NCBI RefSeq assembly: GCF_988242995.1
Contig: NZ_OZ547043.1
Strand: one strand, 5' to 3'
Length of the DNA: 64,000 nt
In this document: in pieces, positions 649-64,000 of the stretch
Layout: each line of letters begins with the position of its first letter
Numbering within the stretch: position 1 is the stretch's first letter
The notes under the pieces: model-generated
What the model was told of the DNA's origin: nothing
The model's input: the letters and a program-made list of their open reading frames with translations, nothing else
Database searches by the model: none
Translations under genes and position numbers: made by a program

Positions 649-879
649 GCTCGCTGTTTTGTCTCTCTTGCCGTTAAAAATTAAGCTGAATTTTATAGCA
701 TTTTTTTAACTGGCCTGTCAGGCAGTGGTGCGTTTTTCTACCGCTATTGAGGTAGGTCAATTTGCGCAGGCGGATTATTTTGTGGCAAACACGTGTTCTT
801 TTTGATTTCGCGCAAAAAGATTCAGAATTTTACTGTTAGTTTCCTCGCGCAGTAATACCCCTGAAAAAAGAGGAAAGCA

Positions 880-3800
880 ATGGACGTCAGTCGCAGACAA
901 TTTTTTAAAATCTGCGCGGGCGGTATGGCTGGAACAACGGTAGCGGCATTGGGCTTTGCCCCGAAGCAAGCACTGGCTCAGGCGCGAAACTATAAATTAT
1001 TACGCGCGAAAGAGATCCGTAACACCTGCACATACTGTTCCGTAGGTTGCGGGCTATTGATGTATAGCCTGGGTGATGGCGCGAAAAACGCCAGAGAAGC
1101 GATTTATCACATTGAAGGTGACCCGGATCATCCGGTAAGCCGTGGTGCGCTGTGCCCGAAAGGGGCCGGTTTGCTGGATTACGTCAACAGCGAAAACCGT
1201 CTGCGCTACCCGGAATATCGTGCGCCAGGTTCTGACAAATGGCAGCGCATTAGCTGGGATGAAGCATTCTCCCGTATTGCGAAGCTGATGAAAGCTGACC
1301 GTGACGCTAACTTTATTGAAAAGAACGAGCAGGGCGTAACGGTAAACCGTTGGCTTTCTACCGGTATGCTGTGTGCCTCCGGTGCCAGCAACGAAACCGG
1401 GATGCTGACTCAAAAATTTGCCCGCTCCCTCGGGATGCTGGCGGTAGACAACCAGGCGCGCGTCTGACACGGACCAACGGTAGCAAGTCTTGCTCCAACA
1501 TTTGGTCGCGGTGCGATGACCAACCACTGGGTGGATATCAAAAACGCTAACGTCGTAATGGTAATGGGCGGTAACGCTGCTGAAGCGCATCCCGTCGGTT
1601 TCCGCTGGGCGATGGAAGCGAAAAACAACAACGATGCAACCTTGATCGTTGTCGATCCCCGTTTTACGCGTACCGCTTCTGTAGCGGATATTTACGCACC
1701 TATTCGTTCCGGTACGGACATTACGTTCCTGTCTGGCGTTTTGCGCTACCTGATCGAAAACAACAAAATCAATGCCGAATACGTTAAGCATTACACCAAT
1801 GCCAGCCTGCTGGTGCGTGATGATTTTGCTTTCGAAGACGGTCTGTTCAGCGGCTACGACGCTGAAAAACGCCAGTACGATAAATCGTCCTGGAACTATC
1901 AGTTCGATGAAAACGGCTATGCGAAACGCGATGAAACACTGACTCATCCGCGCTGTGTGTGGAACTTGCTGAAAGAGCACGTTTCCCGCTACACGCCGGA
2001 CGTCGTTGAAAACATCTGCGGTACGCCAAAAGCAGACTTCCTGAAAGTGTGTGAAGTGCTGGCCTCCACCAGCGCGCCGGATCGCACAACCACCTTCCTG
2101 TACGCGCTGGGCTGGACGCAGCACACCGTGGGTGCGCAGAACATCCGCACCATGGCGATGATCCAATTGCTGCTCGGTAACATGGGTATGGCTGGTGGCG
2201 GCGTGAACGCATTGCGTGGTCACTCCAACATTCAGGGCCTGACCGACTTAGGTCTGCTCTCAACCAGCCTGCCGGGTTATCTGACGCTGCCGTCAGAAAA
2301 ACAGGTTGATTTGCAGTCGTATCTGGAAGCGAATACGCCGAAAGCGACGCTGGCTGATCAGGTGAACTACTGGAGCAACTATCCGAAGTTCTTCGTTAGC
2401 CTGATGAAATCTTTCTACGGTGATGCTGCACAGAAAGAGAACAACTGGGGCTATGACTGGCTGCCGAAGTGGGACCAGACCTACGACGTCATCAAGTATT
2501 TCAACATGATGGATGAAGGCAAAGTCACCGGTTATTTCTGCCAGGGCTTTAACCCGGTTGCGTCCTTCCCGGACAAAAACAAAGTGGTGAGCTGCCTGAG
2601 CAAGCTGAAGTACATGGTGGTTATCGATCCGCTGGTGACTGAAACCTCTACCTTCTGGCAGAACCACGGCGAGTCGAACGATGTCGATCCGGCGTCCATT
2701 CAGACTGAAGTATTCCGTCTGCCTTCGACCTGCTTTGCTGAAGAAGATGGTTCTATTGCTAACTCCGGTCGCTGGTTGCAGTGGCACTGGAAAGGTCAGG
2801 ACGCGCCGGGCGAAGCGCGTAACGACGGCGAAATTCTGGCGGGTATCTACCATCATCTGCGCGAGCTGTACCAGGCCGAAGGTGGTAAAGGCGTAGAACC
2901 GCTGATGAAGATGAGCTGGAACTACAAGCAGCCGCACGAACCGCAATCTGACGAAGTAGCTAAAGAGAACAACGGCTACGCGCTGGAAGATCTCTATGAT
3001 GCCAATGGCGTGCTGATTGCGAAGAAAGGTCAGTTGCTGAGTAGCTTTGCGCATCTGCGTGATGACGGTACAACCGCATCTTCTTGCTGGATCTACACCG
3101 GTAGCTGGACAGAGCAGGGCAACCAGATGGCTAACCGCGATAACTCCGACCCGTCCGGTCTGGGGAATACGCTGGGATGGGCCTGGGCGTGGCCGCTCAA
3201 CCGTCGCGTACTCTACAACCGTGCTTCGGCGGATATCAACGGTAAACCGTGGGATCCGAAACGGATGCTGATCCAGTGGAACGGCAGCAAGTGGACGGGT
3301 AACGATATTCCGGACTTCGGCAATGCCGCGCCAGGTACACCAACCGGACCGTTTATCATGCAGCCGGAAGGGATGGGACGCCTGTTTGCCATCAACAAAA
3401 TGGCGGAAGGTCCGTTCCCGGAACACTACGAGCCAATCGAAACGCCGCTGGGCACTAACCCGCTGCATCCGAACGTGGTGTCTAACCCGGTTGTTCGTCT
3501 GTATGAACAAGACGCGCTGCGGATGGGTAAAAAAGAGCAGTTCCCGTATGTGGGTACGACCTATCGTCTGACCGAGCACTTCCACACCTGGACCAAGCAC
3601 GCGTTGCTCAACGCAATTGCTCAGCCGGAACAGTTTGTGGAAATCAGCGAAACGCTGGCGGCGGCGAAAGGCATTAATAATGGCGATCGTGTCACTGTCT
3701 CAAGCAAGCGTGGCTTTATCCGCGCGGTGGCGGTGGTAACGCGCCGTCTGAAACCGCTGAATGTAAACGGTCAGCAGGTTGAAACGGTGGGTATTCCAAT

Positions 3801-3927
3801 CCACTGGGGCTTTGAGGGTGTCGCGCGTAAAGGTTATATCGCTAACACTCTGACGCCGAATGTCGGTGATGCAAACTCGCAAACGCCGGAATATAAAGCG
3901 TTCTTAGTCAACATCGAGAAGGCGTAA
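880..3927 (+). CDS. fdnG: Formate dehydrogenase-N alpha subunit (selenocysteine-containing molybdoenzyme); in-frame UGA at 1465-1467 read as Sec
   Basis: Track ORFs 880-1467 and 1516-3927 are in the same frame, separated only by TGA at 1465-1467. N-terminus has a twin-arginine motif (SRRQFFK). Total length 3048 nt equals 1015 codons plus stop, matching FdnG. Confidence 0.93.
1465..1510 (+). promoter_or_regulatory. Selenocysteine UGA codon plus putative downstream SECIS hairpin
   Basis: TGA at 1465-1467 followed by sequence with hairpin potential (agcaag-tc-cttgct core; ggacc/ggtc outer arms). Bacterial SECIS elements sit directly 3' of the UGA. Confidence 0.7.
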
Positions 3928-3939
3928 GGGGGCGAACAG

Positions 3940-4824
3940 ATGGCTATGGAAACGCAGGACATTATCAAAAGGTCCGCAACTAACTCCATCACGCCGCCTT
4001 CTCAGGTGCGTGATTACAAAGCAGAAGTCGCGAAACTTATCGACGTTTCCACCTGTATCGGCTGTAAAGCCTGTCAGGTGGCGTGTTCAGAGTGGAACGA
4101 CATCCGTGATGAAGTGGGGCACTGCGTCGGGGTTTACGATAACCCCGCCGATCTGAGCGCCAAGTCCTGGACGGTGATGCGCTTTAGCGAAACCGAACAG
4201 AACGGCAAGCTGGAGTGGCTGATCCGTAAAGACGGCTGTATGCACTGTGAAGATCCGGGCTGCCTGAAGGCGTGCCCGTCTGCTGGTGCAATCATTCAGT
4301 ACGCTAACGGGATTGTCGATTTCCAGTCGGAAAACTGCATCGGCTGTGGTTACTGCATTGCCGGGTGTCCGTTTAATATTCCGCGCCTCAACAAAGAGGA
4401 TAACCGGGTATATAAATGCACGCTCTGCGTCGATCGCGTCAGCGTCGGCCAGGAACCGGCTTGTGTGAAAACCTGTCCGACCGGGGCTATCCACTTCGGC
4501 ACCAAGAAGGAGATGCTGGAGCTGGCGGAACAGCGCGTGGCGAAACTGAAAGCGCGTGGTTACGAACATGCTGGCGTCTACAACCCGGAAGGGGTCGGTG
4601 GTACGCACGTTATGTACGTGCTGCATCACGCCGATCAGCCGGAGCTGTATCACGGTCTGCCGAAAGATCCGAAGATCGATACCTCGGTAAGCCTGTGGAA
4701 AGGCGCGTTGAAACCGCTGGCAGCGGCTGGCTTTATTGCCACTTTTGCCGGGTTGATTTTCCATTACATCGGTATTGGCCCGAATAAGGAAGTGGACGAT
4801 GACGAGGAGGATCATCATGAGTAA
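3940..4824 (+). CDS. fdnH: Formate dehydrogenase-N beta subunit (4Fe-4S ferredoxin-type, C-terminal membrane anchor)
   Basis: 294-aa ORF with several CxxCxxCxxxCP ferredoxin motifs; lies 12 nt after fdnG. Confidence 0.93.
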
Positions 4825-5470
4825 GTCGAAAATGATTGTGCGCACCAAATTTATTGATCGCGCCTGTCACTGGACCGTGGTGATTTGCTTCTTTCTGGTG
4901 GCGCTGTCCGGGATTTCGTTCTTCTTCCCGACGCTGCAATGGCTGACGCAAACCTTCGGTACGCCGCAGATGGGGCGCATTTTGCACCCGTTCTTCGGCA
5001 TTGCGATTTTCGTCGCGCTGATGTTTATGTTTGTGCGTTTTGTGCATCACAACATCCCGGATAAGAAAGATATTCCGTGGCTGTTGAACATTGTCGAAGT
5101 ATTAAAAGGCAATGAGCACAAAGTGGCGGATGTTGGTAAGTACAACGCCGGGCAAAAGATGATGTTCTGGTCGATCATGAGCATGATTTTCGTGCTGCTG
5201 GTGACCGGGGTGATTATCTGGCGTCCGTACTTTGCGCAGTACTTCCCGATGCAGGTTGTTCGCTACAGCCTGCTGATTCACGCGGCTGCGGGTATCATCC
5301 TGATCCACGCCATCCTGATCCATATGTATATGGCATTCTGGGTGAAAGGATCGATTAAAGGGATGATCGAAGGGAAGGTGAGCCGTCGCTGGGCGAAGAA
5401 ACACCATCCACGCTGGTATCGTGAAATCGAGAAGGCAGAAGCGAAAAAAGAGAGTGAAGAAGGGATATAA
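4817..5470 (+). CDS. fdnI: Formate dehydrogenase-N gamma subunit (cytochrome b556)
   Basis: Internal ATG of track ORF 4775-5470 ([12 protein letters not shown]...) gives 217 aa; start overlaps the fdnH stop by 8 nt; polytopic membrane protein with conserved His residues. Confidence 0.9.
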
Positions 5471-8793: not shown

Positions 8794-8889
8794 GTCACTC
8801 ACTCTTTTTTGAATATCCATCCCTGGCACGCTTTTATCGTCTTTGCTTTACCGCCAGGGCGTCGGCCCCAAGTATAAAGCAGATAAAAA

Positions 8890-9600
8890 TAAATATCCTC
8901 CGGCATAGCCGGAGGTTTTTCAAATGCGCCTGTAAGGCTCTGTTACCAGCCGCGCCCTAACAGGCGCACACGATCTGACATTTGCATCCAACTTCGTTAC
9001 TTACGGCCCGTAAACGGGCTGCCCGGATAGGGAATCGATAACTGCTCTCCCATTTTATCCTCTTCAAGCTGGTGCTTTATGTAGTCCTGTATCTTCGCCG
9101 TGTTCTTACCCACCGTATCGACATAGTACCCTCGGCACCAGAACTCCCTGTTTCTGTATTTGAATTTCAAATCCCCAAACTGCTCGTAAAGCATCAGACT
9201 GCTTTTCCCTTTCAGATATCCCATAAAGCCGGATACGCTCATTTTGGGTGGGATTTCCACAAGCATATGGATATGATCTGCGCAGCACTCTGCTTCCAGA
9301 ATCCGTACGCTTTTCCACTCACACAGCTTTCTCAAAATACTGCCTATCGCCCTACGCTTCTCTCCGTAAAACGCCAGTCTTCGGTATTTCGGCGCAAAAA
9401 CTATGTGATATTTACAGTTCCAGCGGGTGTGCGCTAAGCTCTTTTCGTCCCCCATTGGGACCCCCTTTTGATTTCTTGTTTGACACTTGCAGTTGCCAGA
9501 CCGCAAGGTGTTTTAACAAATCAAAAGGGGTTTTAATAACTGGCTCAAAGCTGAAAGCTTTCCGGAACCCCCAGCCTAGCTGGGGGTTTTCTGTGCACAA
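8890..9600 (-). mobile_element. IS200-type insertion sequence (IS200/IS605 family), about 0.7 kb; boundaries approximate
   Basis: Contains a 152-aa Y1 transposase gene flanked by subterminal hairpins at both ends (8897-8915 and 9566-9588), plus a long inverted repeat at about 9461-9529 over the tnpA start region (assumed to occlude the RBS). Not present at this position in K-12 as I recall. Confidence 0.7.
8997..9455 (-). CDS. tnpA: IS200 transposase TnpA (HUH / Y1 single-strand transposase)
   Basis: Track ORF 8997-9506; internal start MGDEKSLAHTRWNCKYHIVFAPKYRR...HIHMLVEIPP (HuH motif)...Y, 152 aa, typical IS200 TnpA. Confidence 0.85.
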   Translation of the reverse strand: MGDEKSLAHTRWNCKYHIVFAPKYRRLAFYGEKRRAIGSILRKLCEWKSVRILEAECCADHIHMLVEIPPKMSVSGFMGYLKGKSSLMLYEQFGDLKFKYRNREFWCRGYYVDTVGKNTAKIQDYIKHQLEEDKMGEQLSIPYPGSPFTGRK

Positions 9601-9604
9601 CAAA

Positions 9605-9630
9605 AACACCATTGCGCAGGCAATGGTGTT
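9605..9630 (-). terminator. Rho-independent terminator of sra
   Basis: Inverted repeat aacaccattgc / gcaatggtgtt; on the minus strand it is followed by tttttgttg, immediately 3' of the sra stop. Confidence 0.65.
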
Positions 9631-49797: not shown

Positions 49798-50817
49798 CTA
49801 TCGCGTCCATACCTGCTTAACATCTTTCGTTTGCGGCGTATTTTGCGCCATGATCCCCGTCAGAACATGCGGCTGGTAGGTTTCTTCCAGAAACTGAATT
49901 TCCTCCGGACTTAGTTGAAGATTTACTGCGTTTACCGCGCCATCGACATGAGCTTTTTTTGTAGCCCCTACGACAGGTGATGTGACTTTTGTCAGCAGCC
50001 AAGCGAGAGATATTTCCGTCATTGACACCAGATGGCGTTCGGCCAGTTCGGCTACACGCTCAATAATGCTGCGATCCTGTTCAGCCGTGCTGTCATATTT
50101 TCCACGCGCATAGTCATCCTCTGTGGCTCGCCGCGTATAGCCTTCTTTACGAGAGAGGCGGCCGCTGGCCAGCGCGCTATAGGGGGTCATTGCGATATTA
50201 TCCTCAGTGCACAGGCCGAAGAGCTCCCGTTCATCTTCGCGCATAATTAGATTGTAGTGGCTCTGTACGGAAACAAAGGGCGTCAGCCCTTCGCGTTCAG
50301 CAAGGGCGTTCGCCTTCGCCAGCTGCCAGGCATAGCAGTTTGAAATACCAACAGCTCGTACTTTGCCAGCAGTAACAGCGGTATGTAACGCTTCAAGCAC
50401 GTCGATAATGGGCGTGTTGTAATCCCAGATGTGGTAGATGTAGAGGTCGATATAGTCCATCCCCAGATTCTTCAGGCTCTGGTCAAGGGATTGAGCGATT
50501 GCCTCTTTTCCGCTGATCCCTCCGGCAATTTGTGCGGGGGTTCGCGGCAGAAACTTGGTGGCCAGGACGATATCATCGCGTTTCGCCATCTCCCGTAATG
50601 CCCGGCCAACGTATCGCTCACTGGAGCCATTCTGGTAGGCTATAGCGGTATCGTAAAAGTTGATGCCCTTTTCAAGGCCATAGCGAATGATGTCGCGGCT
50701 TGCTGTTTCGTCCAGCGTCCAGCTATGCTGACCCGTCGACGGATCGCCAAACCCCATGCATCCCATGCAGATGCGGGAAACAAGTAAGTCACTTTTACCG
50801 AGCCGGGTATACTGCAT
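49798..50817 (-). CDS. Aldo/keto reductase
   Basis: 339 aa; AKR motifs (GINFYDTAIAY, catalytic Tyr/Lys context). Confidence 0.8.
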   Translation of the reverse strand: MQYTRLGKSDLLVSRICMGCMGFGDPSTGQHSWTLDETASRDIIRYGLEKGINFYDTAIAYQNGSSERYVGRALREMAKRDDIVLATKFLPRTPAQIAGGISGKEAIAQSLDQSLKNLGMDYIDLYIYHIWDYNTPIIDVLEALHTAVTAGKVRAVGISNCYAWQLAKANALAEREGLTPFVSVQSHYNLIMREDERELFGLCTEDNIAMTPYSALASGRLSRKEGYTRRATEDDYARGKYDSTAEQDRSIIERVAELAERHLVSMTEISLAWLLTKVTSPVVGATKKAHVDGAVNAVNLQLSPEEIQFLEETYQPHVLTGIMAQNTPQTKDVKQVWTR

Positions 50818-50819
50818 TG

Positions 50820-51392
50820 TTATTCTCCCTCTGGATTATTCACGACGGAATTGAGCAGTTCGACAAGCCTTGAAGCGTGTTCCCGGGCAAGCGTTTTTTG
50901 CTGCGCGATTTTGTCGGCATCCCGGTCGGCATAGCTGATACCGCAGGTATAAACCGGCGCCAGCAGCTCAAGATTGCACAGCCTTGCCGTGGTTTCGAAC
51001 GGAATAAGATACTCTTCAATGGTATTGCCAAAGAAACTGTCGACGGTATAGAGCTCCTCTGGCGCTCCCGTTGTAAAGGAGAGGATCAGCTTTTTACCGC
51101 CCAGTTTCGCCGTTGAGCCATGCGCGAAGCCGTGAACAAAGACCTCGTCCAGCCATTTTTTCATTAATCCTGGCAGCCCATACCAGGAAAAAGGGAACTG
51201 CCAGACAATCACATCGGCCCTGAGCAGGCTTTTCTGCTCCGCCGCGATGTTGAATTTGCCATCCGGATAGAGCCTGTCCAGACGACGAATCTCAACATCG
51301 GGAAGGGCGGTCTCCACTTCATCAAGAATAGTGGCATTGGCGACGGAATGGGTAAGCTCAGGATGACCTGAAATAACAAGGATATTTTTCAT
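50820..51392 (-). CDS. Flavodoxin-like NAD(P)H:quinone oxidoreductase family protein
   Basis: 190 aa; MKNILVISGHPE... N-terminus and WQFPFSWYGLPGLMKKWLDEV typical of NAD(P)H dehydrogenase (quinone) family; 3-nt gap to the downstream AKR gene. Confidence 0.75.
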   Translation of the reverse strand: MKNILVISGHPELTHSVANATILDEVETALPDVEIRRLDRLYPDGKFNIAAEQKSLLRADVIVWQFPFSWYGLPGLMKKWLDEVFVHGFAHGSTAKLGGKKLILSFTTGAPEELYTVDSFFGNTIEEYLIPFETTARLCNLELLAPVYTCGISYADRDADKIAQQKTLAREHASRLVELLNSVVNNPEGE

Positions 51393-51542
51393 TTCAATCA
51401 GTTAAACATCTTTGGTGAATATTAAATCCAGTATAGAGTGACAACATTATTTTTTTAGAGCAGTAAAGGCTCATTCACTTTTAGGCAAAAACTAATAATT
51501 GTCGGCTGATCACAATGTGCTCAGTCATCATGAAACGGTGAA

Positions 51543-52220
51543 CTAAACCGTGATGCCCAGTAAACGTTCTGCATTGCGAAACGCGATGGCCTCTTTTTCA
51601 GCCTTGTTGACGGGCAGACTGTCTATAAAGGTTTTTACACCGTCCAGGGGTCTGATAGGGATAACCGACGGAGAACAGGATCCTTTCAGCACCCATTAAC
51701 GCGTAGATAAACTGGAAGTGCGGCAGTGTTAGCATATGACGGGGTAACGTAAACGTGTTCCTGGAAGGTTCTCGTTAGCGTGCGTGACAGACCCGTTGCA
51801 GCCAGTGCTAGGCTGTCATCAAGACGCTGGAGCCAGAAGGGTAACATCTCCCCCCAGTGGCCACTGATTACCTGCAGGTTGGGATATTTATCAAATGCGC
51901 CCGATAACATCAGCCGCAACAAATGGATCCCCGCTTCGTGATGCCAGCCCCAGGCAAACATAGAAAGCCTGGCGTTGACCTCTGCGCTGAAGCCCGTGAA
52001 GTAGGCCTGCTGTACGCTTTTAAGCGGTAACCCGGGATGAAGATAGAGTGGCACATTCAGTTTATTAAAGCGGGAAAGCAGGGAGTCGGTCAGGATTATG
52101 ACCATCAGCGACGGTTTTCCCCCTGTCGCCAAGGAAAGGTGCCTGCTCAAGCGCAACAGGCATACACGCGCGCCCTAACTCGCTGTCGAGATAATTTTCT
52201 TCGAGGCAAATGATTTTCAT
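51543..52220 (-). pseudogene. Frameshifted amidohydrolase-2 (TIM-barrel metal-dependent hydrolase) gene
   Basis: Coding potential is split over three frames: MKIICLEENYLDSELG... (from ATG at 52220), a 156-aa middle ORF (51686-52156) containing ISGHWGEMLPFW, and a C-terminal piece ...AEKEAIAFRNAERLLGITV* ending at 51543. Confidence 0.55.
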
Positions 52221-52322
52221 ATTCTCACCATTCATACAAAGCAGTAAAAGTGATACAGATTAGAATCACCCGGAACAGCCCGTTCGTGTGTGTCATTCAT
52301 GACAGTCTGTTCCGGACGGGCT

Positions 52323-53270
52323 TTACACCATCGGTTTTTCCCAGGCGCCTCGTGTATCCACTCTGGTCTCTGCGGCGAGTTGTTCCAGCAGGATGATTTC
52401 CTCATCGCGTAACTGGATGTCTGAAGCGCAGGCGGCGTCCAGAACGTGATGGACTTTAGTCGCACCAACGAGGGGAAGGGTACCTTTCACAATAGCCCAT
52501 GCGATGGATATCTGTGCCACGCTGGCATTCCTTTCGGCTCCCATTTTTTTCATGGCGGCGGTTAGTCTTTCTATCTGCGGCAGTACGGCGTTATAACTTT
52601 CGGCCCGGCCACTCCCGGCAGGCATGGGATGATTTGAATCATAACGACCACTGAGCGCGCCTTGCTCCAGGACCATGTAAGCAAAGAACGTGATGTTATT
52701 TTGTCGGCAATAATCAAGGATCCCGGCCTCTTCAGAAGCGCGATAGAGCAGGCTGTAGTGATTTTGTACTGCACTGAGGGAATAACCGGAAGCGTTAAGG
52801 ATTTCATTGGCGCGTCTGATTTGTGCCAGATTGTGGTTGGAAACACCTACGCGTTTTACCTTACCGCTTTGTAAAAGTGGGATCAGTCCTGGCGTCCATT
52901 TTTCGACGTCGAGGGGATTATGGATCCAGTAGATATCAATCGCGTCCACGCCCAGGCGCCCAAGGCTGGCCTCAAGCATATCGCTGACAGGCTGCGCAGA
53001 CTGCTTGTCCGCAATCTGCGGCGTGAATTTGGTGGATAAAATTATGTTCTCGCGGGGAAACTGACGGACTAATGCTCCCAGCGCAGTCTCGGAACTCCCC
53101 ATACCATATACTGCTGCGGTATCCCAGAGATTGAGGCCCTTACTCATGGCCGCAGTGAACACTTCTGCCATCTGAGTATCAGAAAGATGATTACCAAAGA
53201 CGGTGTCGCCGCCGGCAAAGCCTGTGCCCCAGGACCATGTACCTAGTGCGACTGGAGGTAGTGTTTTCAT
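52323..53270 (-). CDS. Aldo/keto reductase
   Basis: 315 aa; AKR motifs (LWDTAAVYG, IDIYWIHNP). Confidence 0.8.
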   Translation of the reverse strand: MKTLPPVALGTWSWGTGFAGGDTVFGNHLSDTQMAEVFTAAMSKGLNLWDTAAVYGMGSSETALGALVRQFPRENIILSTKFTPQIADKQSAQPVSDMLEASLGRLGVDAIDIYWIHNPLDVEKWTPGLIPLLQSGKVKRVGVSNHNLAQIRRANEILNASGYSLSAVQNHYSLLYRASEEAGILDYCRQNNITFFAYMVLEQGALSGRYDSNHPMPAGSGRAESYNAVLPQIERLTAAMKKMGAERNASVAQISIAWAIVKGTLPLVGATKVHHVLDAACASDIQLRDEEIILLEQLAAETRVDTRGAWEKPMV

Positions 53271-53343
53271 ATTCAGCTCCTGAAAAAAGGCCGGATCGTG
53301 GCTGACTTAAACCGGCCAAGTAAGGTGAGTAACGATGAATTAA

Positions 53344-54033
53344 TTAAGCTGTCCGGCGGAGTGCATTTAACAGCGCCACACCAACCCCATGTGCTGAAGC
53401 GGGATTCTGCCCCGTGATAAGGCGATCGTCGGTAACCACGTTTTCAGACCAGTTTGGAGCTTCATGATAAAGCGCACCATGCTCGCGAAGTGCGGTTTCA
53501 AGCAGGAAGGGAACCACATCTGTTGTGTGAACTTCTTCCTCTTCCTTGTTGGTAAAGGCCGCCACATTTTTCCCTTTTATCAGGTATTCGCCGCTACTGA
53601 GTTTTGCGTCAACCAATGCCGCAGGCCCGTGGCAGACGGCTGAGACAATCCCATCACTTTCATACACTTCGCGGATAATACGCTGGGCATCCTGATTATC
53701 ACGGAAATCCCACATGGTCCCATGACCACCTGCAAAGAAAACTGCGCTGTAATCGGCACCTTTCAGCTCGGATAACGCAGGTGTTGTTGCCAGGCGCTGC
53801 TGAAAATCGGTTTCGTTCCAGTACCAGGCGTTAACAGGGTCGCTGAGGTCAAATCCATCCACCGGTGGCTGCCCCCCGCGAATACTGGCTATTGTTGTTT
53901 TTATTCCGGCATCTTCCAGTACTTTCAGCGGATGAGTCAGCTCGGCCAGGAAAAAACCGGTTGGTACACCGGATGCGCCTTTAATCGGATGGCTGGAAAC
54001 GACACATAGCACTGGTTTATATGCAGGTTTCAT
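53344..54033 (-). CDS. DJ-1/PfpI (class I glutamine amidotransferase-like) family protein
   Basis: Roughly 229 aa; nucleophile-elbow-like AVCHGP; start uncertain (track ORF extends to 54045). Confidence 0.75.
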   Translation of the reverse strand: MKPAYKPVLCVVSSHPIKGASGVPTGFFLAELTHPLKVLEDAGIKTTIASIRGGQPPVDGFDLSDPVNAWYWNETDFQQRLATTPALSELKGADYSAVFFAGGHGTMWDFRDNQDAQRIIREVYESDGIVSAVCHGPAALVDAKLSSGEYLIKGKNVAAFTNKEEEEVHTTDVVPFLLETALREHGALYHEAPNWSENVVTDDRLITGQNPASAHGVGVALLNALRRTA

Positions 54034-54041
54034 ATCGGTCC

Positions 54042-54353
54042 TCACTCTTTATTTTTAAATTCATCGGCGAAGAGATTTTCCCAGTTAATAAAGGAGCCAA
54101 GCGGTATACACTCGAAGCTTAGTAAGCCTGCTTTTGCCAACGGGAATTCGGCCATAACGTTCATCGCTTCATCGACAGAGTCACATTCAAGAAAAATAGC
54201 GACGCCAGGTCTGTCCTGACGGAAGTAGATGTCGCGGATGAAGCCTGATTTATACAATCCCCAGGCGTGCAGCGCTTCAGCGTTGAGGTGCGGAGCATAT
54301 TTCTCCAGCGATGCTCCAGGGGCAGGGATATCCAGACATAAAATTCGCATCAT
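54042..54353 (-). CDS. Small alpha+beta-barrel protein, possibly muconolactone-isomerase-like
   Basis: 103-aa ORF first in the operon; weak pattern similarity to muconolactone isomerase and other dimeric alpha/beta-barrel proteins; assignment tentative. Confidence 0.45.
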   Translation of the reverse strand: MMRILCLDIPAPGASLEKYAPHLNAEALHAWGLYKSGFIRDIYFRQDRPGVAIFLECDSVDEAMNVMAEFPLAKAGLLSFECIPLGSFINWENLFADEFKNKE

Positions 54354-54489
54354 AGTCTCCTGAACTCAGGTCGTTGTAGAAAGAGACTAAAGTATAAGAG
54401 GCGTATTTCAGGAAGATTAGAGGGTCATTGACTTAAGCATTTTTAGACTGTACTTAATAATCAGGCGAGAATTGCTTTAGGAAAACATT

Positions 54490-55389
54490 ATGAATAACGC
54501 TCTTTATAACCAGATTCGCATCTTCCAGAGCATTGCGCGGGAGGGCAATATTTCGGCAGCCGCAAGGAAACTGGAAATTACGCCTCCCTCCGTCAGCAAT
54601 GCACTAAAGCTGCTGGAAGAGTATATCGGCCATCCGCTTTTTGTGCGTACGACCCGCCGTATAGAGCTGACGGAAACCGGTCAATTATTGCTGGAACAGA
54701 CCGCTGCGGCGGTGGAGTCGCTGGAAAACTCACTTGAAAGCATTCGCGACCAGCATCAGGAGCCCTCTGGGATGGTGCGAATTACGCTCTCGCGTTTTGC
54801 CTACCTGTTAATTCTTAAGCCTGCGATGGCAGAATTCTGTCAGCAATATCCGGGTATACAGTTAGAAATTTCGGTCTACGACGGTACCGTGAATATCATC
54901 AAAGAGCGTTTTGATCTGGGGATCCGTTTTGGCGATATTCTTGAGGGAGGGGTGGTGGCCCGACCGTTAATGAAACCGTTTCGTGAAGGATTATATGCAT
55001 CCTCAGCGTATCTCTCCCGACATGGAACGCCTGAAGTGCCGGCAGATCTCTGTCATCACCAGCTGATTGGTTACCGTTTTATCACCAACAACCGCATCCT
55101 TCCGCTGCTCCTGAACGATCGCGGTGAGCAGTTGACCGTTGAGATGCCGGGGCAGTTAATCAGCAACGATATTGACGTTATGGCAGACGGGATCCGTAAC
55201 GGGCTGGGAATTGGGCGCTTGTTTGAGCCTGTCTGGCAGTTACAGCCGGACAGGGAGCGCTTTATTCCGGTGATGGAGAGCTACTGGAAAACCTACCCGC
55301 CAGTGTATCTCTATTACCCCAAAAACGCGGGTAAAACGAAAAGAGTGAAGGCCCTGATTGATTTTCTGATATCCACTACGGGGCGATAA
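54490..55389 (+). CDS. LysR-family transcriptional regulator
   Basis: 299 aa; N-terminal HTH (ISAAARKLEITPPSVSNALKLLEE) and LysR substrate-binding domain; divergent from the redox operon. Confidence 0.85.
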   Translation: MNNALYNQIRIFQSIAREGNISAAARKLEITPPSVSNALKLLEEYIGHPLFVRTTRRIELTETGQLLLEQTAAAVESLENSLESIRDQHQEPSGMVRITLSRFAYLLILKPAMAEFCQQYPGIQLEISVYDGTVNIIKERFDLGIRFGDILEGGVVARPLMKPFREGLYASSAYLSRHGTPEVPADLCHHQLIGYRFITNNRILPLLLNDRGEQLTVEMPGQLISNDIDVMADGIRNGLGIGRLFEPVWQLQPDRERFIPVMESYWKTYPPVYLYYPKNAGKTKRVKALIDFLISTTGR

Positions 55390-55787
55390 AGACGATAACG
55401 CCTCGTTCAGTATGGAGATGCATCGAATGGCATTGTGAGTTTTTTTTCACAGATGGGCGTAATCGTCAGTGGATTTTACATACGAGGATAGCGCCCACAT
55501 ACTGACATCATTAATTAACGTTGGGTGAGGTTTACCGGGGGGGAGGGGAACGCGAACCAGGAGATGGAGGTGGCCAATCTGGTACGAACCGCCGCGTAGC
55601 TTGCACGGCAAGAGCTGCTGACTGATTCATCAGTTAAGCTACTGAAAGAGCGGAACACATGAACTTAAGAACAAACCACCACATTTAACATAATATACAT
55701 TATGCGCACCAGCATAAACCAAGGAAGAATCCAGTCGTTGGCGGCCATAATTGTCCTGCTCATTAACAACGACCAAAACCCCATATC

Positions 55788-57110
55788 TTACTTAATACCG
55801 TATTCTCGGCTTAACCGGCCGTGCAACCTCAACACATTGGTTTCAACTGCCGTCACCACGTTCTCCGGAAAATCTGTCGGTAACGAAGTCTTCACGTTAT
55901 CCAGTGCTGCCGGAATCATTCTGGCAAAGTAATTCAGGATTTCATGCATCTGCACTTCCGGGAATCTCAGCACCTTTGCTGTCGCCAGAAAATGTCGCGG
56001 ATAAATTTTATCGATTGCCGTTTTTTTGCCTTTGGATGCGTTAAGCCCCATTGCCAGTTTGAGATCGCTGATGTGTATTCCTGCGCCACCCAATACCGGA
56101 AATGCTGAAATGATGTCGTAAAATGGCGTGAGTCGATAACTGCCGCCAGCCTGAATAAATACGGAGAAGTTTTTTGCATGGCCATCCGTTGCGCCAATCA
56201 ACCACTGGAACACCTGAAACTTCATAAAATCATAGCGATCTTTCAGCGCCTCGCTGGACCCCATCAAAAAAGCCATGATCCGCGCGATGCCTGGGCCTCC
56301 ATCTGATTCATATTTCACCGATGAAGGTAAACCGAATGTCTGACACATATCCTCCTGTGGCAAGCGAAGTAAAACCGTTCGCTCAGCATTCCAACGCCTG
56401 TCAAAACGTTCGACCGCTAACGCGCGCACATTTCCCGCTTTAATGATTTCTGCGTCCGGCACATTCAACCCAAGTTCTTTCGCCAGCAGCAGACAGTAAT
56501 ACTCATTATCAACGCTTTGGCTGAGATCGAGCGTCGCATTGGGCTGCCTGATTTCGCCAATCGGTAATTTAATGATGTGCGTCGTCGGCGTTATTCCTTT
56601 CGGAATGCACCAGTCATTGCCTATTCTGAGCAGCGCTGTCTTCTCCTGCGCGCCAGCAACCGAGATGCGAAAGTCATTTTCTTCTCTAATCATGCCCAGA
56701 GGGATATCTGCTTTATAAGCCGTTAATACTTCTTCAAGCCTGGCTTCAGTGAGCTGTTCCCATGCCATTATCGGGCGCGTTATGGTTTCATTTTCGGGTA
56801 ATAACGTTACGGCACCAACGCTATCTCGCCCTATTTCTGACAATAAATCAAACGGTTGTCTGGATTTAGCATGATAACGTTTAACGATCCGGTCACGTAC
56901 AATCGGGCTATCGGGTAGCAGGTTATCGAAGAAGTTAAATACAGCATCAGAGGTGATATTCCCCCTCTGCAATGGCAGCGAAAGTGATAACGGTCTGGCA
57001 TAACGGTTGGCTAACCACTCCGGTGCATACTTAAAGGTGTGCGCGCCATTGGCTAACTTCGTTAACTCGCCTACCCGCTGGTTGTTCATCCAAGTGACAA
57101 GTTTAGGCAT
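55788..57110 (-). CDS. hipA: Serine/threonine kinase toxin HipA
   Basis: Track ORF 55788-57167 with start MPKLVTWMNNQRVGELTKLANGAHTFKYAPEWLA (440 aa); start overlaps the hipB stop by 1 nt. Confidence 0.93.
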   Translation of the reverse strand: MPKLVTWMNNQRVGELTKLANGAHTFKYAPEWLANRYARPLSLSLPLQRGNITSDAVFNFFDNLLPDSPIVRDRIVKRYHAKSRQPFDLLSEIGRDSVGAVTLLPENETITRPIMAWEQLTEARLEEVLTAYKADIPLGMIREENDFRISVAGAQEKTALLRIGNDWCIPKGITPTTHIIKLPIGEIRQPNATLDLSQSVDNEYYCLLLAKELGLNVPDAEIIKAGNVRALAVERFDRRWNAERTVLLRLPQEDMCQTFGLPSSVKYESDGGPGIARIMAFLMGSSEALKDRYDFMKFQVFQWLIGATDGHAKNFSVFIQAGGSYRLTPFYDIISAFPVLGGAGIHISDLKLAMGLNASKGKKTAIDKIYPRHFLATAKVLRFPEVQMHEILNYFARMIPAALDNVKTSLPTDFPENVVTAVETNVLRLHGRLSREYGIK

Positions 57111-57376
57111 TACCACTCCAGATCTTGCTGTTCTGTTGATTCTGGCGAGGCATTTTTCGTGTCGCATAGCGTCATTGAGAGTTCAAGCGACTGTAAAATC
57201 TTAAAAAATGTCGTCAGCGTGGTATTGTCAGGGTTGTTTTCGAAATTGGAAATTGTCGCCTGCTTAATGCCGATTTTTTTCGCCAGCTCGCTCTGCGTCC
57301 AGCCATTTTGCTGACGAACCAGTTTCATTGCATTCGCTAATTGCGTTGGGCTATAGATCTTCTGAAAGCTCATCAT
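57110..57376 (-). CDS. hipB: HipB antitoxin (Xre-type HTH repressor)
   Basis: Track ORF 57110-57394 with start MMSFQKIYSPTQLANAMKLVRQQNGWTQSELAKKIG (88 aa). Confidence 0.93.
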   Translation of the reverse strand: MMSFQKIYSPTQLANAMKLVRQQNGWTQSELAKKIGIKQATISNFENNPDNTTLTTFFKILQSLELSMTLCDTKNASPESTEQQDLEW

Positions 57377-57397
57377 GTCATACGTCCACAGCAAATT

Positions 57398-57511
57398 TAT
57401 CCGCTCAAGGGGATATTATCAGTTTTATCCTTTAGTGAGGATAAAGTCAATCTGGAAACACATCTTATCCGCTCTACGGGATAAACGCTGCGATATCCGC
57501 GATCGCGGATA
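57398..57511 (-). promoter_or_regulatory. hipBA promoter/operator region with four HipB operators (TATCC-N8-GGATA)
   Basis: Four copies of TATCC-N8-GGATA at 57398-57415, 57426-57443, 57466-57483 and 57494-57511, all upstream of the hipB ATG. Confidence 0.85.
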
Positions 57512-57586
57512 AAAAGGAGGATTTAAAAGTCGTTTGAAGTCGGCAATATTAAGCCGCATGCATCTTCGACATGCGGCTTATACGGT

Positions 57587-60500
57587 TTACCAGCTATATT
57601 TCACACCCAGCATGCCCTGAGTATCGCTATAGCCTTTATCACCTAGTTGCACACCGACATTCCCCCACAGGCTAAGGTTGTTATTTACTTTCGCCTCAAC
57701 CCCGGTACGTACTTCACCGAGATTACGCGCACCATCACGGCTTACGGTTTGACCATTCATCTTCACGGCGTAGACTTTGCTGTTGTTGATCCAGTTCGCT
57801 TCAATGTAAGGCTGGAACTCACGCTGTTTACCATTGTCACGCTGGTGATGACTGTTCAGGTAGGTTTTCACCCCAAGTCGCGTTTGCACGTTTCCGTCGC
57901 CTTCCGTTTCAATGCGTGTTCCGTCTTTCCGGGTATGGTCAGAATCTTTCACACCCATCCAGGTGATTTGTACCTGTGGCTGGACGTACCAGGTATTCAG
58001 CGTCCCTTCGCTGCCGCTAAAAGTTCCCGCTTCAAAGGTATACCCACCCTCAACAGAGGCCGTCACACCGCGAGAATCATAGTCGTCAGCAGAACGGTTA
58101 TCGGAACTGACGCTGTTATCAAACCAGTTATACAGCGCCCAGCTGTCAACATAAGCGCCGGTCTTATTCGCATCGTTCTGATACCAGGTCGCGTACAGTC
58201 CTGCGCTGTAACCGCTGATGCGCCCATCCGATTTATAACCCACACGATTACTCTGAGTATTACTGTGCTGATTGGCGTAGCCTGCCATCACGCCAAGATG
58301 CCAGCGATCCTGCGCGTTGCTACTCCACTGCGCCAAATCGCCTCCTAGCTGCAATACATAGCGGTTAGCCTGAGTATTTAGCTGCCCGTCACCGGTCCTG
58401 AAACGTTCGTGCCCCCCGACATGACGCATCCACATACTGCTTGCCGAACCCTGAGAATGCAGTGAATCTGTATACTGCGGCTCACCCAGACGGTCGTGTA
58501 AGCGATGGCTAAACAGCGAGTTGGCTGCGGCAATGTTGCTGATATAGCTTCCGGCCTCCGGGCGATAAACTGATGGGCCTTCCGGATCCACAACAGGGGG
58601 ATTATTGATGGGATCGGGTGTATCCGCTGGCGTTACGCCGTCCCATTTACTGGTCAGATACCAGTTTTTCTCGTCATTCCCCTTCCCTTTAGCCAGCGTG
58701 TAGACGTAAGCCCCAGCTTCGACAGTTCCGGTGGTCAGCGCGAAGTTACCTGCAGAATTACCGCCAACCTCAATGAGTTCAATACCGTTGACCGTTTGTG
58801 CACCGACGCCGCCAATGTTATCAACCCGAACGCGAGTGTTCCCTTGGGTATCGCCTTTCACGTTCATTTTATCCGTGGGTGAATTATCGCCGCCCAGCGT
58901 CGCGTTGAACGTCATCAGGCCATTGTTTCCGGTATAGTTGCCGTTAACGGTCAGTACATTCCCCGGTTTTCCTCCTTCACTATTCATTTGAACCGTGCCG
59001 CCATTCTCCAGGTTACCGCCGACAGTGGTTTTAGCGACACGCAGTGTCCCCCCTGGCATAACGTTCACATCACCTGCAGTAGTGACATTTCCCGACATCA
59101 CACCGCTGTTATGGATATTAATGTGCTGACTTGCCATATTAATGGCAGAGTCGGAACCGAAAGCAATTTCACCACCCACGATATCCGTCGTACCCTGATA
59201 CGCCGCGGAATCTTTGTTAAGAGTCAGGATCCCGGTCCCCAGTTTTGTCACATCACCGCTACCGCTGATACTGTGCGTCATCGCCCAGCTACGCTCAGTG
59301 GAGATGGTGAGCAGGCCATTATTGATAACGGAAGCATCACCCAGGTTTTTCTGCTCGTTGACGCTGAGCGCGCTGCCTGTATCAATGTTGAATTGCCCCA
59401 CAAAGCGGCTATTATCGCCATCCAGCTCTACGTCTGTCCTGGCGGTTGCGCTCACGATACCCTTCCCGCTTATGCTATTACGCAGTTCGCCGGTCACATT
59501 TTTTAGCGTTAACAGACCGTCATTGGCAATATTTCCTCTACCTAACCCCTGCGTATTATCGAGGCTGACTTCCGCATTTGGGCTAATGCTGGTTAACGCA
59601 TTGTAGCGTGCATTAAGCCCCTCGATAGCCAGCGTTCCCCCTGTAACATTCAGGTTTCCGCCACCTGTCAGTTCGCCCTGACTGATCCCACCTTTATTCA
59701 CCGTCAGCGACCCCTCTTTAAACAAAACAGTCGAACCCATCAGCCCGGTGAATGTCTCTACCGTCTGGGCCGATCCATTAAGATCGACGATGGCCGCGTT
59801 GCTGATGTTCAGTTCCCGAGTATTGCCCAGCGCGCCATCCGCATCGGTACGTAATGTCCCCATCTGAACGTAGGTTGCCCCCTGATAGTCGTTCTGACCG
59901 TTGGAAAGCGAAACCTGTCGCACCGTATTGATTGCCAGATCCCCTTCACCACCGATTTTTGCCGACATATCGGCCGTTGCGCCATAGGCTCCGCCATGTT
60001 CGGCTAACGTCAGCTTTTGCCCACCATGGATGTTCAGCGCTTTCAGCCCATAGTTAACGTACAAACCATCACCTGGTGCGGTCGTGAGGCGGAATCCATA
60101 ATCACCCTCGGCGACCACTGTCCCGTTTTGTGCAATATGTAACGTTTTGTCCGCTTCCACCTCGTCGCCCTGTAAATCACGTAACGTTAATGAGCCACCC
60201 GACCCAATAACCGTTTGCGCCTTCACCAGTTGAACGCCGACATGACTATCATCGTGTTCCAGCAAATTGAGCGTCGTCAGAGGGTTATTCGCCATGGGAT
60301 CATTCCACGGTTTAGGCACGTCGATAAGCACGTCGCCCGTCCCGTTTACCTGATAGTTACGGCCTTTCCAGGTGTAGTCACCCGCGCCGACAACCAGCGT
60401 ATCGACGCTGATATATCCCTCCGCGAGCGTCGCAGCAGGAATATCCGTATCGAAAATGAGCGTACCGCCATTCATGGCCAGTCCACCAATGGATTGCTCT

Positions 60501-63007
60501 CCCACGTTTACCGATGTGGTATTTTCACTGTCAGACTGCAACATCGCGTGAGTAAGCGCAGCGGTGTTGTCGCGTTCCAGCGTGAAGGTACTATCTTTCA
60601 GTTGGGCAACACCGGCGAATTCAGTCCCTGTTGCATGGGTAAAGCCAAACATCTTGTCGGAGGATGACAGCTGCACTCGCATCAAGCCATCGCCTTTGAG
60701 CGCATTGGTCAGCGTGTAATCTCCTGCACTGTTCGTTGATGCGAGAATGTCGAGCGTACCGGGGTTTGCAATGGTTACTTCACTCGAACCCATGCCCGTT
60801 ACCCCATCTGCCGTATGAGACGCAATGGTCAGGAGGCCGTCATTGACCAGCGTTTTACCGCTATAAGTATTCCCTGCATTGAACACCGTATGGCCTGCAT
60901 CATGGATCACTTTTCCGTCTTTATCGTCACCTGTAATCAGCATATCGACCTGGTAGCCGGCATCACTGTTATTAGTATGATTAAAGACAAAAACACCTTC
61001 GCCAGAGCCAAACTCTATTTTCGTCGCGTTGGTGATAAATCCGGCATCTGCCGCCGCCTCACCGTGAGCTGCACCAATGTTTAGCGTTCCTACAGCAGGT
61101 TCAAAAACACCTAAGTAAACTTCTCCACCTTCGACATTCAGCGTACCGTTATTCGTCAGTGTTAACGTACCTGTGCCAGTCGTCCCTACATTCATATTGA
61201 ATGTTTCAAGAAGAGAGTTCTGCCCATCCACCCGCACGTCGCCCTTACTTTTGTCATTGAGAGCTATCTGTGTATCACGCGCTTTAACTATACCTCCGGT
61301 GGTAATATTCAGTTCACCCGCGCCTAATACACCGACCTGTAGCAATTGGGCGTTAGTAGATGACGTTTTTAAATTCCAGAGACTATCCGTTGAAATATTA
61401 ACTATCCCCTTACCGGAGGCATTTCCTCCGATAAATCCATAGCCCGTTGAATTAAGAGTGGCACCATTACTGACATTTACGATGCCGCTACCAAAATTAC
61501 CGACATTAATACCTACAGTATCGAACAATGATGTCGCATCCATCAGGTTCAGTGTGCCGATACCGCTTGCTTTATCGCCCAAAAAAGTAATATTTTGCGA
61601 TACAAACTTACCGCCATCGCTAATATTGAGGTTTCCGACACCCGCAACACCAATGGTGGTATAGACATTCTTATTGACCTCCCACATCCCCCCCGTGGTG
61701 ATGCTGACATTCCCGACGCCGGTTTCTCCATAACCGAGTGAGCTTCCTCCGTTGCTGACAACAAGCCCCTCATTACTGATATTCATTTCGCCGTGGCCGT
61801 CATAACCAAGATTAGTTCCGAGATTAGTGATAACGGAGTTCTTATCCTTAATAGTAATGTTGCCTGTGCCTGTTTCTTTCATCCCCGCAGTGATAATTCC
61901 CGAATCTACTTTTCCTTCACTCGAGACATTAAGTTCACCGTCGCCAGCATCACCGATATAGATATAGCGGAAAGCTTCGCCCGTTCCGAGGAAATTCCAA
62001 TGCCCTTTATCAGTCACGTTGACGACACCGTGGGAACCGTCCTGAACGCCCACCAATGAATATTCTTTGTTATTAATCAGTCCATTATTGGAAATATTGA
62101 CTTTGCCATTACCGAAATATCCATTATAGAGTCTGCGTACCGTGATGACAGAGTCTTGATCCTGCACATTCAGGGTTCCGATACCGGTGGCATTGCCACC
62201 GATAATCGTATTTTCAGCCGTAATCAGCCCACCCTCGCGAATAGTCGCTTCCCCAGTTCCTTGATTGCCAATTTGAAATTCAATTGAGGAATCATTATTT
62301 TTTATTAGCCACTCGCCACCCTTTTCAACGACAACCTTACCATTACTGTTCGCCTGATATCCTACAATGGCGACGATTGAACTCGTGACGTAACCCTTAT
62401 CCGTAATATTTAATGAGCCTGTACCGTAACTCCCTATTTCGAATAATTCGGTCATCAGAACCGAGTCCTCTCCCTCAACATTGACCGTCCCGACGCCTCC
62501 TGTCGAAGAACCTATCCTTAAATATCCTCCGTCAACGTGCCCCTTCTGTTTAATATTCAGCATCCCCGTTCCGGATTGGCCCACATTTAAAGGCCTTGCA
62601 TTATTTCCGCTATCATACAATCGCCAGGTGCCACCCAAAACATTAACGGTGCCCTTCGAGTTCTCATTACCACCAATGACGCTGGTAGTAATAGTGGTTA
62701 AGGAGGCATTACCGCCAGCCAAAATATTAAGCACTCCAGTGCCATACCACCCAACCAGGTAGGCATCATAAGCAATATCAGTATTAATATTGGTAATCTG
62801 ATCATTATCAACTTCCAGACTCGCACCAGACGCTGAACCGCTTAGTGCCAGCAAAACACCCAGCGACAATCTACTGAATTTCGTTGTCAGTCCAGAGGAT
62901 TTACGCAAATTAACCGTCGATGTTTTACCTACTCTGCGAGTTAATTCCGAGCAGACCTGAAATACCTGTAGGGTGCAATTCCATATCACGCGATAGATTC
63001 TATTCAT
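57587..63007 (-). CDS. yneO: AIDA-I-type autotransporter adhesin, intact, 1806 aa
   Basis: Extended autotransporter signal region (MNRIYRVIWNCTLQVFQVCSELTRR...), long passenger with reiterated G-x-G / NxG beta-helix-like modules, and a C-terminal beta-barrel ending ...GVKYSW; position between hipB and lsrK matches K-12 yneO. Confidence 0.85.
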   Translation of the reverse strand: MNRIYRVIWNCTLQVFQVCSELTRRVGKTSTVNLRKSSGLTTKFSRLSLGVLLALSGSASGASLEVDNDQITNINTDIAYDAYLVGWYGTGVLNILAGGNASLTTITTSVIGGNENSKGTVNVLGGTWRLYDSGNNARPLNVGQSGTGMLNIKQKGHVDGGYLRIGSSTGGVGTVNVEGEDSVLMTELFEIGSYGTGSLNITDKGYVTSSIVAIVGYQANSNGKVVVEKGGEWLIKNNDSSIEFQIGNQGTGEATIREGGLITAENTIIGGNATGIGTLNVQDQDSVITVRRLYNGYFGNGKVNISNNGLINNKEYSLVGVQDGSHGVVNVTDKGHWNFLGTGEAFRYIYIGDAGDGELNVSSEGKVDSGIITAGMKETGTGNITIKDKNSVITNLGTNLGYDGHGEMNISNEGLVVSNGGSSLGYGETGVGNVSITTGGMWEVNKNVYTTIGVAGVGNLNISDGGKFVSQNITFLGDKASGIGTLNLMDATSLFDTVGINVGNFGSGIVNVSNGATLNSTGYGFIGGNASGKGIVNISTDSLWNLKTSSTNAQLLQVGVLGAGELNITTGGIVKARDTQIALNDKSKGDVRVDGQNSLLETFNMNVGTTGTGTLTLTNNGTLNVEGGEVYLGVFEPAVGTLNIGAAHGEAAADAGFITNATKIEFGSGEGVFVFNHTNNSDAGYQVDMLITGDDKDGKVIHDAGHTVFNAGNTYSGKTLVNDGLLTIASHTADGVTGMGSSEVTIANPGTLDILASTNSAGDYTLTNALKGDGLMRVQLSSSDKMFGFTHATGTEFAGVAQLKDSTFTLERDNTAALTHAMLQSDSENTTSVNVGEQSIGGLAMNGGTLIFDTDIPAATLAEGYISVDTLVVGAGDYTWKGRNYQVNGTGDVLIDVPKPWNDPMANNPLTTLNLLEHDDSHVGVQLVKAQTVIGSGGSLTLRDLQGDEVEADKTLHIAQNGTVVAEGDYGFRLTTAPGDGLYVNYGLKALNIHGGQKLTLAEHGGAYGATADMSAKIGGEGDLAINTVRQVSLSNGQNDYQGATYVQMGTLRTDADGALGNTRELNISNAAIVDLNGSAQTVETFTGLMGSTVLFKEGSLTVNKGGISQGELTGGGNLNVTGGTLAIEGLNARYNALTSISPNAEVSLDNTQGLGRGNIANDGLLTLKNVTGELRNSISGKGIVSATARTDVELDGDNSRFVGQFNIDTGSALSVNEQKNLGDASVINNGLLTISTERSWAMTHSISGSGDVTKLGTGILTLNKDSAAYQGTTDIVGGEIAFGSDSAINMASQHINIHNSGVMSGNVTTAGDVNVMPGGTLRVAKTTVGGNLENGGTVQMNSEGGKPGNVLTVNGNYTGNNGLMTFNATLGGDNSPTDKMNVKGDTQGNTRVRVDNIGGVGAQTVNGIELIEVGGNSAGNFALTTGTVEAGAYVYTLAKGKGNDEKNWYLTSKWDGVTPADTPDPINNPPVVDPEGPSVYRPEAGSYISNIAAANSLFSHRLHDRLGEPQYTDSLHSQGSASSMWMRHVGGHERFRTGDGQLNTQANRYVLQLGGDLAQWSSNAQDRWHLGVMAGYANQHSNTQSNRVGYKSDGRISGYSAGLYATWYQNDANKTGAYVDSWALYNWFDNSVSSDNRSADDYDSRGVTASVEGGYTFEAGTFSGSEGTLNTWYVQPQVQITWMGVKDSDHTRKDGTRIETEGDGNVQTRLGVKTYLNSHHQRDNGKQREFQPYIEANWINNSKVYAVKMNGQTVSRDGARNLGEVRTGVEAKVNNNLSLWGNVGVQLGDKGYSDTQGMLGVKYSW

Positions 63008-63530
63008 ATAAACGCTCCATATACAAACAATACAGCCACGAAAGAGATGAGTCGTCAGACATTAAAAATGAAACTTATTAAATTGTCAGAGGTCTGTATT
63101 GAGTGTTGGTTGGAGGTGGGAAGGTGTCAATTTGGCTAATTTGCTAATACTTTCGAATTGATAGATTAAAAATTGCATAGTTCTTATTTTATTTAAAAAT
63201 GAACCATGAGTTATTGTTGCTTAATAAGAAAAATGTTTCTTTTAATAAGAAAATTACCATCATCATATTTAACAAAGAATAGCATTAATTGCTAAAAAAG
63301 AACTCTATTAAAACTCTTTTTCATTCATTTATGCCTTTAGGAATATTCGCTATAAAATAAGGGTTATGCTTAATATTTTAAGAAAAATAGCAATTTCCCC
63401 TTGAATATATTACTGGCGATGGAACGATGAATCTGCAAGCTGGCATTTAACAAACCAGCTCTAAAAGAAGGGAAATAAGAATACTCAAAAACTAACAGCC
63501 ACGGTCATCATGATGTGGCTGTCAATGAAA

Positions 63531-64000
63531 CTATAACCCAGGCGCTTTCCATAACGACGTCGTCAGCCCGTGATCAACCAGCCCCAGCTGATCCTGATAA
63601 ACTGCCTGCCACTTATCGCGTGAATCCTGATAAAGTTCATGTTTTTCCGGGTCTGGTGTGTGCGTCCGTTCCCAGCGAACCAGGCGTTCTCCGGTTTCTG
63701 CCATTGATGAAAAAATTCCGGCACCGACGCCAGCTGCAATGGCACATCCTAATGCGGTGGCTTCTTTGACCACCGGAATATTGACAGGTAATCCCGAGAC
63801 ATCAGCGAGAATTTGACTCCATAATTTCCCTTTTGAACCTCCGCCTGCAAAGACTAACGATGAAGGATGAATATCCGAGAAATCAGCGATTTGCTGCAAG
63901 TTACACGCTGATACAATCGCCGCATTTTCTTCCAGCGCACGGAACAACGTCGCTTTGTTACATTTATCCGGATCAATAGACAAATTAATAAAGGAAGGCG
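63531..64000 (-). CDS. lsrK: Autoinducer-2 kinase (FGGY carbohydrate kinase), C-terminal part; gene runs off the window end
   Basis: Track ORF 63531-63983 contains FGGY-kinase C-terminal motifs ([20 protein letters not shown]...); the reading frame continues past position 64000. Confidence 0.85.

Follow-up and report, generated by a model that had tools for sequence, protein, structure and literature searches.

The in-frame UGA codon 196 of fdnG and its 3′ hairpin as an almost certain selenocysteine recoding site with a bacterial SECIS

Introduction

Formate dehydrogenase-N is a nitrate-inducible respiratory enzyme that faces the periplasm, and fdnG encodes its catalytic subunit. The selenocysteine (Sec) site of this gene was reportedly described in Escherichia coli K-12 by Berg and colleagues in 1991, and SelB-dependent Sec insertion is said to have been reported there. 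We take the UGA196 site, its hairpin and the structure of the enzyme with Sec196 on the molybdenum to have been established for E. coli between 1991 and 2002. The bacterial SECIS that has been dissected experimentally is that of fdhF. Recoding of fdhF has an efficiency of 30–40% in vivo and of about 40% in a reconstituted translation system, and where Sec is not incorporated RF2 brings translation to an end.

The E. coli SECIS has been described as a 17-nt upper stem-loop, running from nt 15 to nt 31 and placed 11 nt from the UGA, with a lower stem that is reported to be dispensable for function (PMC8659212). In that source, which summarises Liu et al. (1998), U17 and G23 are given as the sites of contact with SelB. 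A consensus for bacterial SECIS elements (bSECIS) is provided in PMC13188914, and that paper cites Berg, Li, Heider and Stewart (1991) and Berg, Baron and Stewart (1991) (J Biol Chem 266:22380, 22386). Here we compare with these systems an fdn locus contained in a 64,000-nt stretch of DNA, referred to below as the window.

Results

Comparison with fdnG, fdoG and fdhF of E. coli

When set against K-12 fdnG (b1474), the gene in the window showed 59 nucleotide differences (98.06% identity) and 3 differing residues out of 1015. None of the 59 falls in the SECIS or anywhere in gene nt 560–660, the two genes agree at every base of the 48 nt that begin with the UGA, and codon 196, the operon and the flanking genes are alike. 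To judge from the sequence, nothing functional differs between the two genes. K-12 fdoG (b3894, Sec196) carries its UGA at the same codon number and shares the 48 nt from the UGA with fdnG of the window, but it lies at another locus (fdhD / fdoGHI / fdhE) and encodes a protein of 1016 amino acids. The SECIS of fdhF (Sec140) is of the same design, with a UGA, an 11-nt spacer, an upper stem-loop, a bulged U17 and G23-U24 in the loop, and the peptide context, ARV-U-HGP, is also the same. However, the stem sequence differs, for example with U18-A29 in fdhF and A18-U30 in fdnG of the window, and the host protein of the fdhF site, formate dehydrogenase-H, is a distinct cytoplasmic enzyme of 715 amino acids.

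The two paralogues were also compared along their length. Over the first 900 nt, fdnG of the window and K-12 fdoG are 77% identical, and this region contains one perfect run of 71 nt (gene nt 583–653, window 1462–1532) that begins 3 nt before the UGA; the second-longest perfect run is 20 nt. Within the 48 nt from the UGA all of the synonymous third positions are identical (16/16), against 55.6% elsewhere (P about 8e-5). The run reaches approximately 22 nt past the 3′ end of the SECIS hairpin, over synonymous sites that are freely variable between species. Perhaps Escherichia is subject to an extra constraint at the RNA level in the stretch that follows the hairpin, such as a longer structure or a contact with the ribosome or SelB, but we consider this very improbable, and a short gene-conversion tract between the fdnG and fdoG paralogues is the plainer explanation.

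Gene identity and reading frame

On the plus strand, a single frame of 1016 codons leads from the ATG at 880 to the TAA at 3925–3927, and the sole stop codon inside it is the TGA at 1465–1467, which is codon 196 of that frame (880 + 195 × 3 = 1465). The same frame then continues through 819 further sense codons before the TAA is reached. By our own estimate the chance of 819 stop-free codons in random sequence is about (61/64)^819, or about 1e-17, and the frame past TGA196 is therefore not a product of chance. A mechanical list of open reading frames nevertheless cuts fdnG into two, 880..1467 (195 amino acids) and 1516..3927 (803 amino acids).

The translation aligned with PDB 1kqf_A ("formate dehydrogenase, nitrate-inducible, major subunit") from residue 1 to residue 1015 on both sides with a score of 2400 bits, and a non-standard residue (X) stands at 196 of the crystallised protein, opposite the UGA. 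The alpha subunit scored 1624 bits with the NCBIfam equivalog model TIGR01553 (cutoff 814), the fdnH beta subunit 482 bits with TIGR01582 (cutoff 335) and the fdnI gamma subunit 487 bits with NF007558, the model for the gamma subunit of FDH-N (cutoff 339); with the FDH-O model NF007924 the same gamma subunit reached 268 bits, which is under the cutoff of 341. The order of the genes, yddG (minus strand), fdnG, fdnH, fdnI, yddM and adhP, is that of the fdn locus, and fdnG is annotated at matching coordinates in E. coli genomes. An assignment to fdoG was considered and was ruled out by the synteny, which is not that of fdhD / fdoGHI / fdhE, by the length of the protein and by the family of the gamma subunit. 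The first-pass annotation, made from the sequence alone, had named the gene fdnG, had counted the in-frame TGA as codon 196 and had warned that naive ORF finders would split the gene there; the name is borne out by the synteny, 1kqf_A, TIGR01553 and the N-type gamma subunit, and the count from ATG 880 and the two mechanical pieces agree with the other two statements.

Residues 4–10 of FdnG read S-R-R-Q-F-F-K, which we take to be the predicted Tat export signal expected of a periplasm-facing enzyme. A candidate FNR-like box lies upstream of the gene (Table 1), and one NarL-type heptamer, TACCCCT, was noted at 856–862; both are consensus matches only and, as candidate sites, they would fit what is known of the regulation of fdnGHI by anaerobiosis and nitrate.

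Positions 700–4000 of the window, which hold fdnG and the start of fdnH, found matches in 5425 of the 5426 complete E. coli genomes searched (identity up to 99.7%). The best identity among these 5,426 genomes was 99.7% for the fdnG segment and 98.7–99.2% for longer segments, and none was identical to this Escherichia-type chromosome. Around the UGA site, a stretch of 72 nt is shared without change by E. albertii and others.

Table 1. Positions of fdnG, its predicted recoding signals and neighbouring features in the window
Feature	Position	Strand	Basis
Candidate FNR-like box and possible anaerobic activator site, TTGAGGTAGGTCAA, upstream of fdnG	747..760	+	2 mismatches to TTGAT-N4-ATCAA; consensus match only
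fdnG CDS, formate dehydrogenase-N alpha subunit, 1015 aa including Sec196	880..3927	+	single frame, 1kqf_A, TIGR01553, E. coli annotation
Tat motif S-R-R-Q-F-F-K, FdnG residues 4–10	889..909	+	read from translation
SECIS_3 (RF01989) match, model 1–59 of 59, not truncated	1462..1520	+	covariance model
UGA codon 196, predicted selenocysteine, Mo-ligand position	1465..1467	+	aligns with 1kqf_A X196; TGA/Cys homologue pattern
Full SECIS hairpin, paired region of minimum-free-energy fold	1470..1510	+	-12.7 kcal/mol; 92% paired cells in 40 homologues
Upper stem-loop, predicted minimal SelB-binding element, 11 nt past UGA	1479..1496	+	fdhF register, PMC8659212 features, covariation
fdnH, Fe-S beta subunit	3940..4824	+	TIGR01582; E. 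coli annotation
fdnI, cytochrome b gamma subunit; 8-nt overlap with fdnH	4817..5470	+	NF007558

The SECIS hairpin

The Rfam model SECIS_3 (RF01989) matched at the site with a score of 84.3 bits (gathering score 63; E = 1.4e-18 over the entire window), well beyond anything expected by chance. Membership of the fdhF-type family, SECIS_2 (RF01988), was tried and rejected, as the score of 28.8 bits falls short of the gathering score for that model, 70. From the TGA onwards, 46 nt fold at -12.7 kcal/mol into a hairpin at 1470–1510. The stability of this hairpin is not above chance (z = -1.37): dinucleotide-shuffled sequences had energies of -9.1 +/- 2.6 kcal/mol (mean), and 21 of 200 shuffles folded as well or better. 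Fold energy was thus set aside as insufficient evidence for a SECIS, and because the energy of the hairpin does not suffice alone, the case rests on the covariance model, the sequence identity and the comparative data. The earlier description of a hairpin-forming sequence after the TGA holds true, yet its fold energy is not significant by itself, and the span that had been assigned to the site, 1465–1510, takes in the UGA and the entire paired region. It had also been proposed that the sequence be folded and compared with the SECIS of fdhF and fdnG; the comparison returned identity to K-12 fdnG and a U17/G23/U24 register as in fdhF.

Numbered from the U of the UGA, the upper helix pairs G15-G16 with C31-C32 and A18–A22 with U26–U30, with the bulged U17 at window position 1481 and the loop bases G23-U24 at 1487–1488. 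The hairpin is placed as an E. coli-type SECIS is, within the coding region and straight 3′ of an in-frame UGA, in the frame of fdnG, and it has the E. coli-type features of PMC8659212, namely an upper stem-loop of 17–18 nt, the 11-nt spacing, the bulged U17 and G23-U24. It also lies within the bSECIS consensus (PMC13188914): the loop, GUC, is 3 nt long (consensus 3–9 nt) and has G as its first base (consensus, G as the first or second base of the loop), the upper stem comprises 7 bp interrupted by one bulge (4–16 bp), the distance from UGA to loop is 19 nt (16–37 nt) and the minimum free energy is -12.7 kcal/mol (-7.5 kcal/mol or lower). The lower stem (1468–1482 with 1502–1513) contains A-C and A-G mismatches when an Escherichia-type sequence is put in the Rfam consensus register. 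A shift of 1 nt gives better pairing in Escherichia-type sequences but worse pairing in the beta-proteobacterial homologues, which fit the Rfam register.

Homologues and covariation

GTDB species-representative genomes were scanned for DNA encoding G-A-M-T-N-H-W, which returned at least 120 stretches; since the hairpin ends just 5′ of this pattern, it was not itself selected for. Enough upstream sequence was present in 117 of these at least 120 stretches, and the codon 45 nt upstream was read in each. Among the matches listed, which come from many phyla, the aligned codon was TGA in 114 of 117, TGT in two and TGC in one, and the context at all 117 listed sites was of the form AR[VIL]-U/C-H. 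The occurrence of TGA versus TGT or TGC among the listed homologues follows the Sec/Cys alternation that is classic for selenoprotein families.

An ungapped alignment was made of the window sequence and 39 distinct TGA-bearing sequences of the HGP type, mostly proteobacterial, taken from the matches listed. Among these 40 distinct sequences the upper helix was paired in 97.9% of cells. Two pairs were compensatory in this set of listed matches: the G-C of columns 24–36 (31 sequences) is replaced by A-U in 8, and the A-U of columns 27–33 (34 sequences) by C-G in 5. The two pairs lie at synonymous third codon positions (Val/Ala and Ala/Leu). The covariation score observed in the same alignment of listed matches was reached by none of 500 shuffles (0/500), a test that is to be read with the relatedness of the sequences in mind and with the fact that one of the aligned sequences supplied the structure. 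Pairing over the full hairpin was 92% in these 40 listed sequences and fell to 25–59% when the 3′ partners were slid by 1–3 columns.

The Cys codons among the matches listed are found in Shewanella xiamenensis, a Dehalococcoidia MAG and one further genome. The three listed Cys forms are without G23-U24, and in two of them just 2 of the 7 upper-helix pairs are left, a weak control given n = 3.

Discussion

UGA196 and the hairpin 3′ of it are almost certainly the selenocysteine recoding site of fdnG with a bacterial SECIS. The first-pass annotation had called this a genuine recoding site, and the call is backed by the open frame, the SECIS_3 match, the identity to K-12 and the homologue pattern. 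The codon, its frame, the identity of the gene, the SECIS match, the K-12 identity, the Sec/Cys pattern and the covariation of the helix were all established computationally, and for SelB binding and Sec insertion we rely on the literature. By the mechanism described there, SelB with GTP and Sec-tRNA(Sec) would bind the upper stem-loop at 1479–1496, the lower stem would be melted by the time the ribosome arrives at UGA196 and the 11-nt spacer would set the SelB complex at the ribosomal A site. Sec would then be inserted at UGA196 in place of termination by RF2, and translation would run on to yield the 1015-amino-acid protein, with Sec196 ligating the molybdenum cofactor. By analogy, a truncated FdnG product of 195 amino acids would be expected under selenium limitation.

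One alternative explanation is that the codon is an ancestral Sec codon in a genome that has lost its Sec machinery, in which case UGA196 would terminate translation and fdnG would be functionally dead. No tRNA gene and none of selA, selB, selC and selD is visible within the 64-kb window, the source is identical to none of the complete E. coli genomes in the collection of 5426, and an IS200 is present where the closest E. coli reference has none. As the window is without sel genes and the genome is identical to none of those searched, the decoding machinery of this genome is inferred at the species level only. With the K-12 genes as queries and as a species-level proxy, selC was found in 5424 of the 5426 genomes and selAB and selD in 5425 each. 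The chance that this strain lacks the sel genes is small, though not zero. Set against machinery loss, too, is an intact fdnGHI under evident purifying selection, as shown by the 59 nucleotide changes relative to K-12, which spare the SECIS and alter just 3 amino acids. We therefore regard loss of the machinery as very improbable.

Another possibility is that a nonsense mutation gave rise to the TGA, or that it marks a true boundary between two genes, which would make of the locus a pseudogene or a pair of frames, 880–1467 and 1516–3927. A mechanical ORF finder does give two frames, and the energy of the hairpin alone is not above chance. However, the same TGA is carried by K-12 fdnG and fdoG and by 114 of the 117 homologues listed, from many phyla; the crystallised protein is one chain of 1015 amino acids across the site; the frame stays open for 819 codons, and the protein departs from that of K-12 at just 3 residues; and both the covariation and the match to the SECIS model speak against it as well. 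This reading is effectively refuted already, and the probability left to it is negligible. That UGA196 is read by a near-cognate standard tRNA (for example that for Trp or Cys) and not by Sec-tRNA(Sec) draws nothing from this analysis beyond the general low-level misreading of UGA, and is vanishingly unlikely given that the non-TGA homologues listed use Cys codons in the classic Sec/Cys signature, that the SelB-binding determinants are conserved and that residue 196 of the 1kqf sequence is non-standard.

Selenocysteine recoding at this site has been known since 1991, and the present case adds nothing to the biology of selenocysteine decoding. It matters for the quality of annotation only: gene callers that take TGA as a stop split or truncate fdnG, and UGA196 should therefore be flagged as a translational exception (Sec).

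Other features of the window

An IS200C-like element occupies 8887–9606, between maeA and sra, with its tnpA ORF at 8997–9455 on the minus strand. In the closest E. coli reference there is no insertion between maeA and sra, and IS200 is found at fdnI/yddM and at digH/gadC. The only other Rfam match in the window was STnc490 (146 bits, 9465–9588, minus strand), which lies inside the IS200 copy. The match is directly upstream of tnpA and on the same strand, which places it in the leader region of the IS200 and means that it does not represent a chromosomal sRNA gene of its own. Positions 50001–64000 form a variable region that is covered to at least 80% by only 417 of the 5426 E. coli genomes; it matches hipA, an autotransporter of the ECSE_1600 family and aldo/keto reductases, to which some strains add a SIR2-family gene and an ISNCY transposase.
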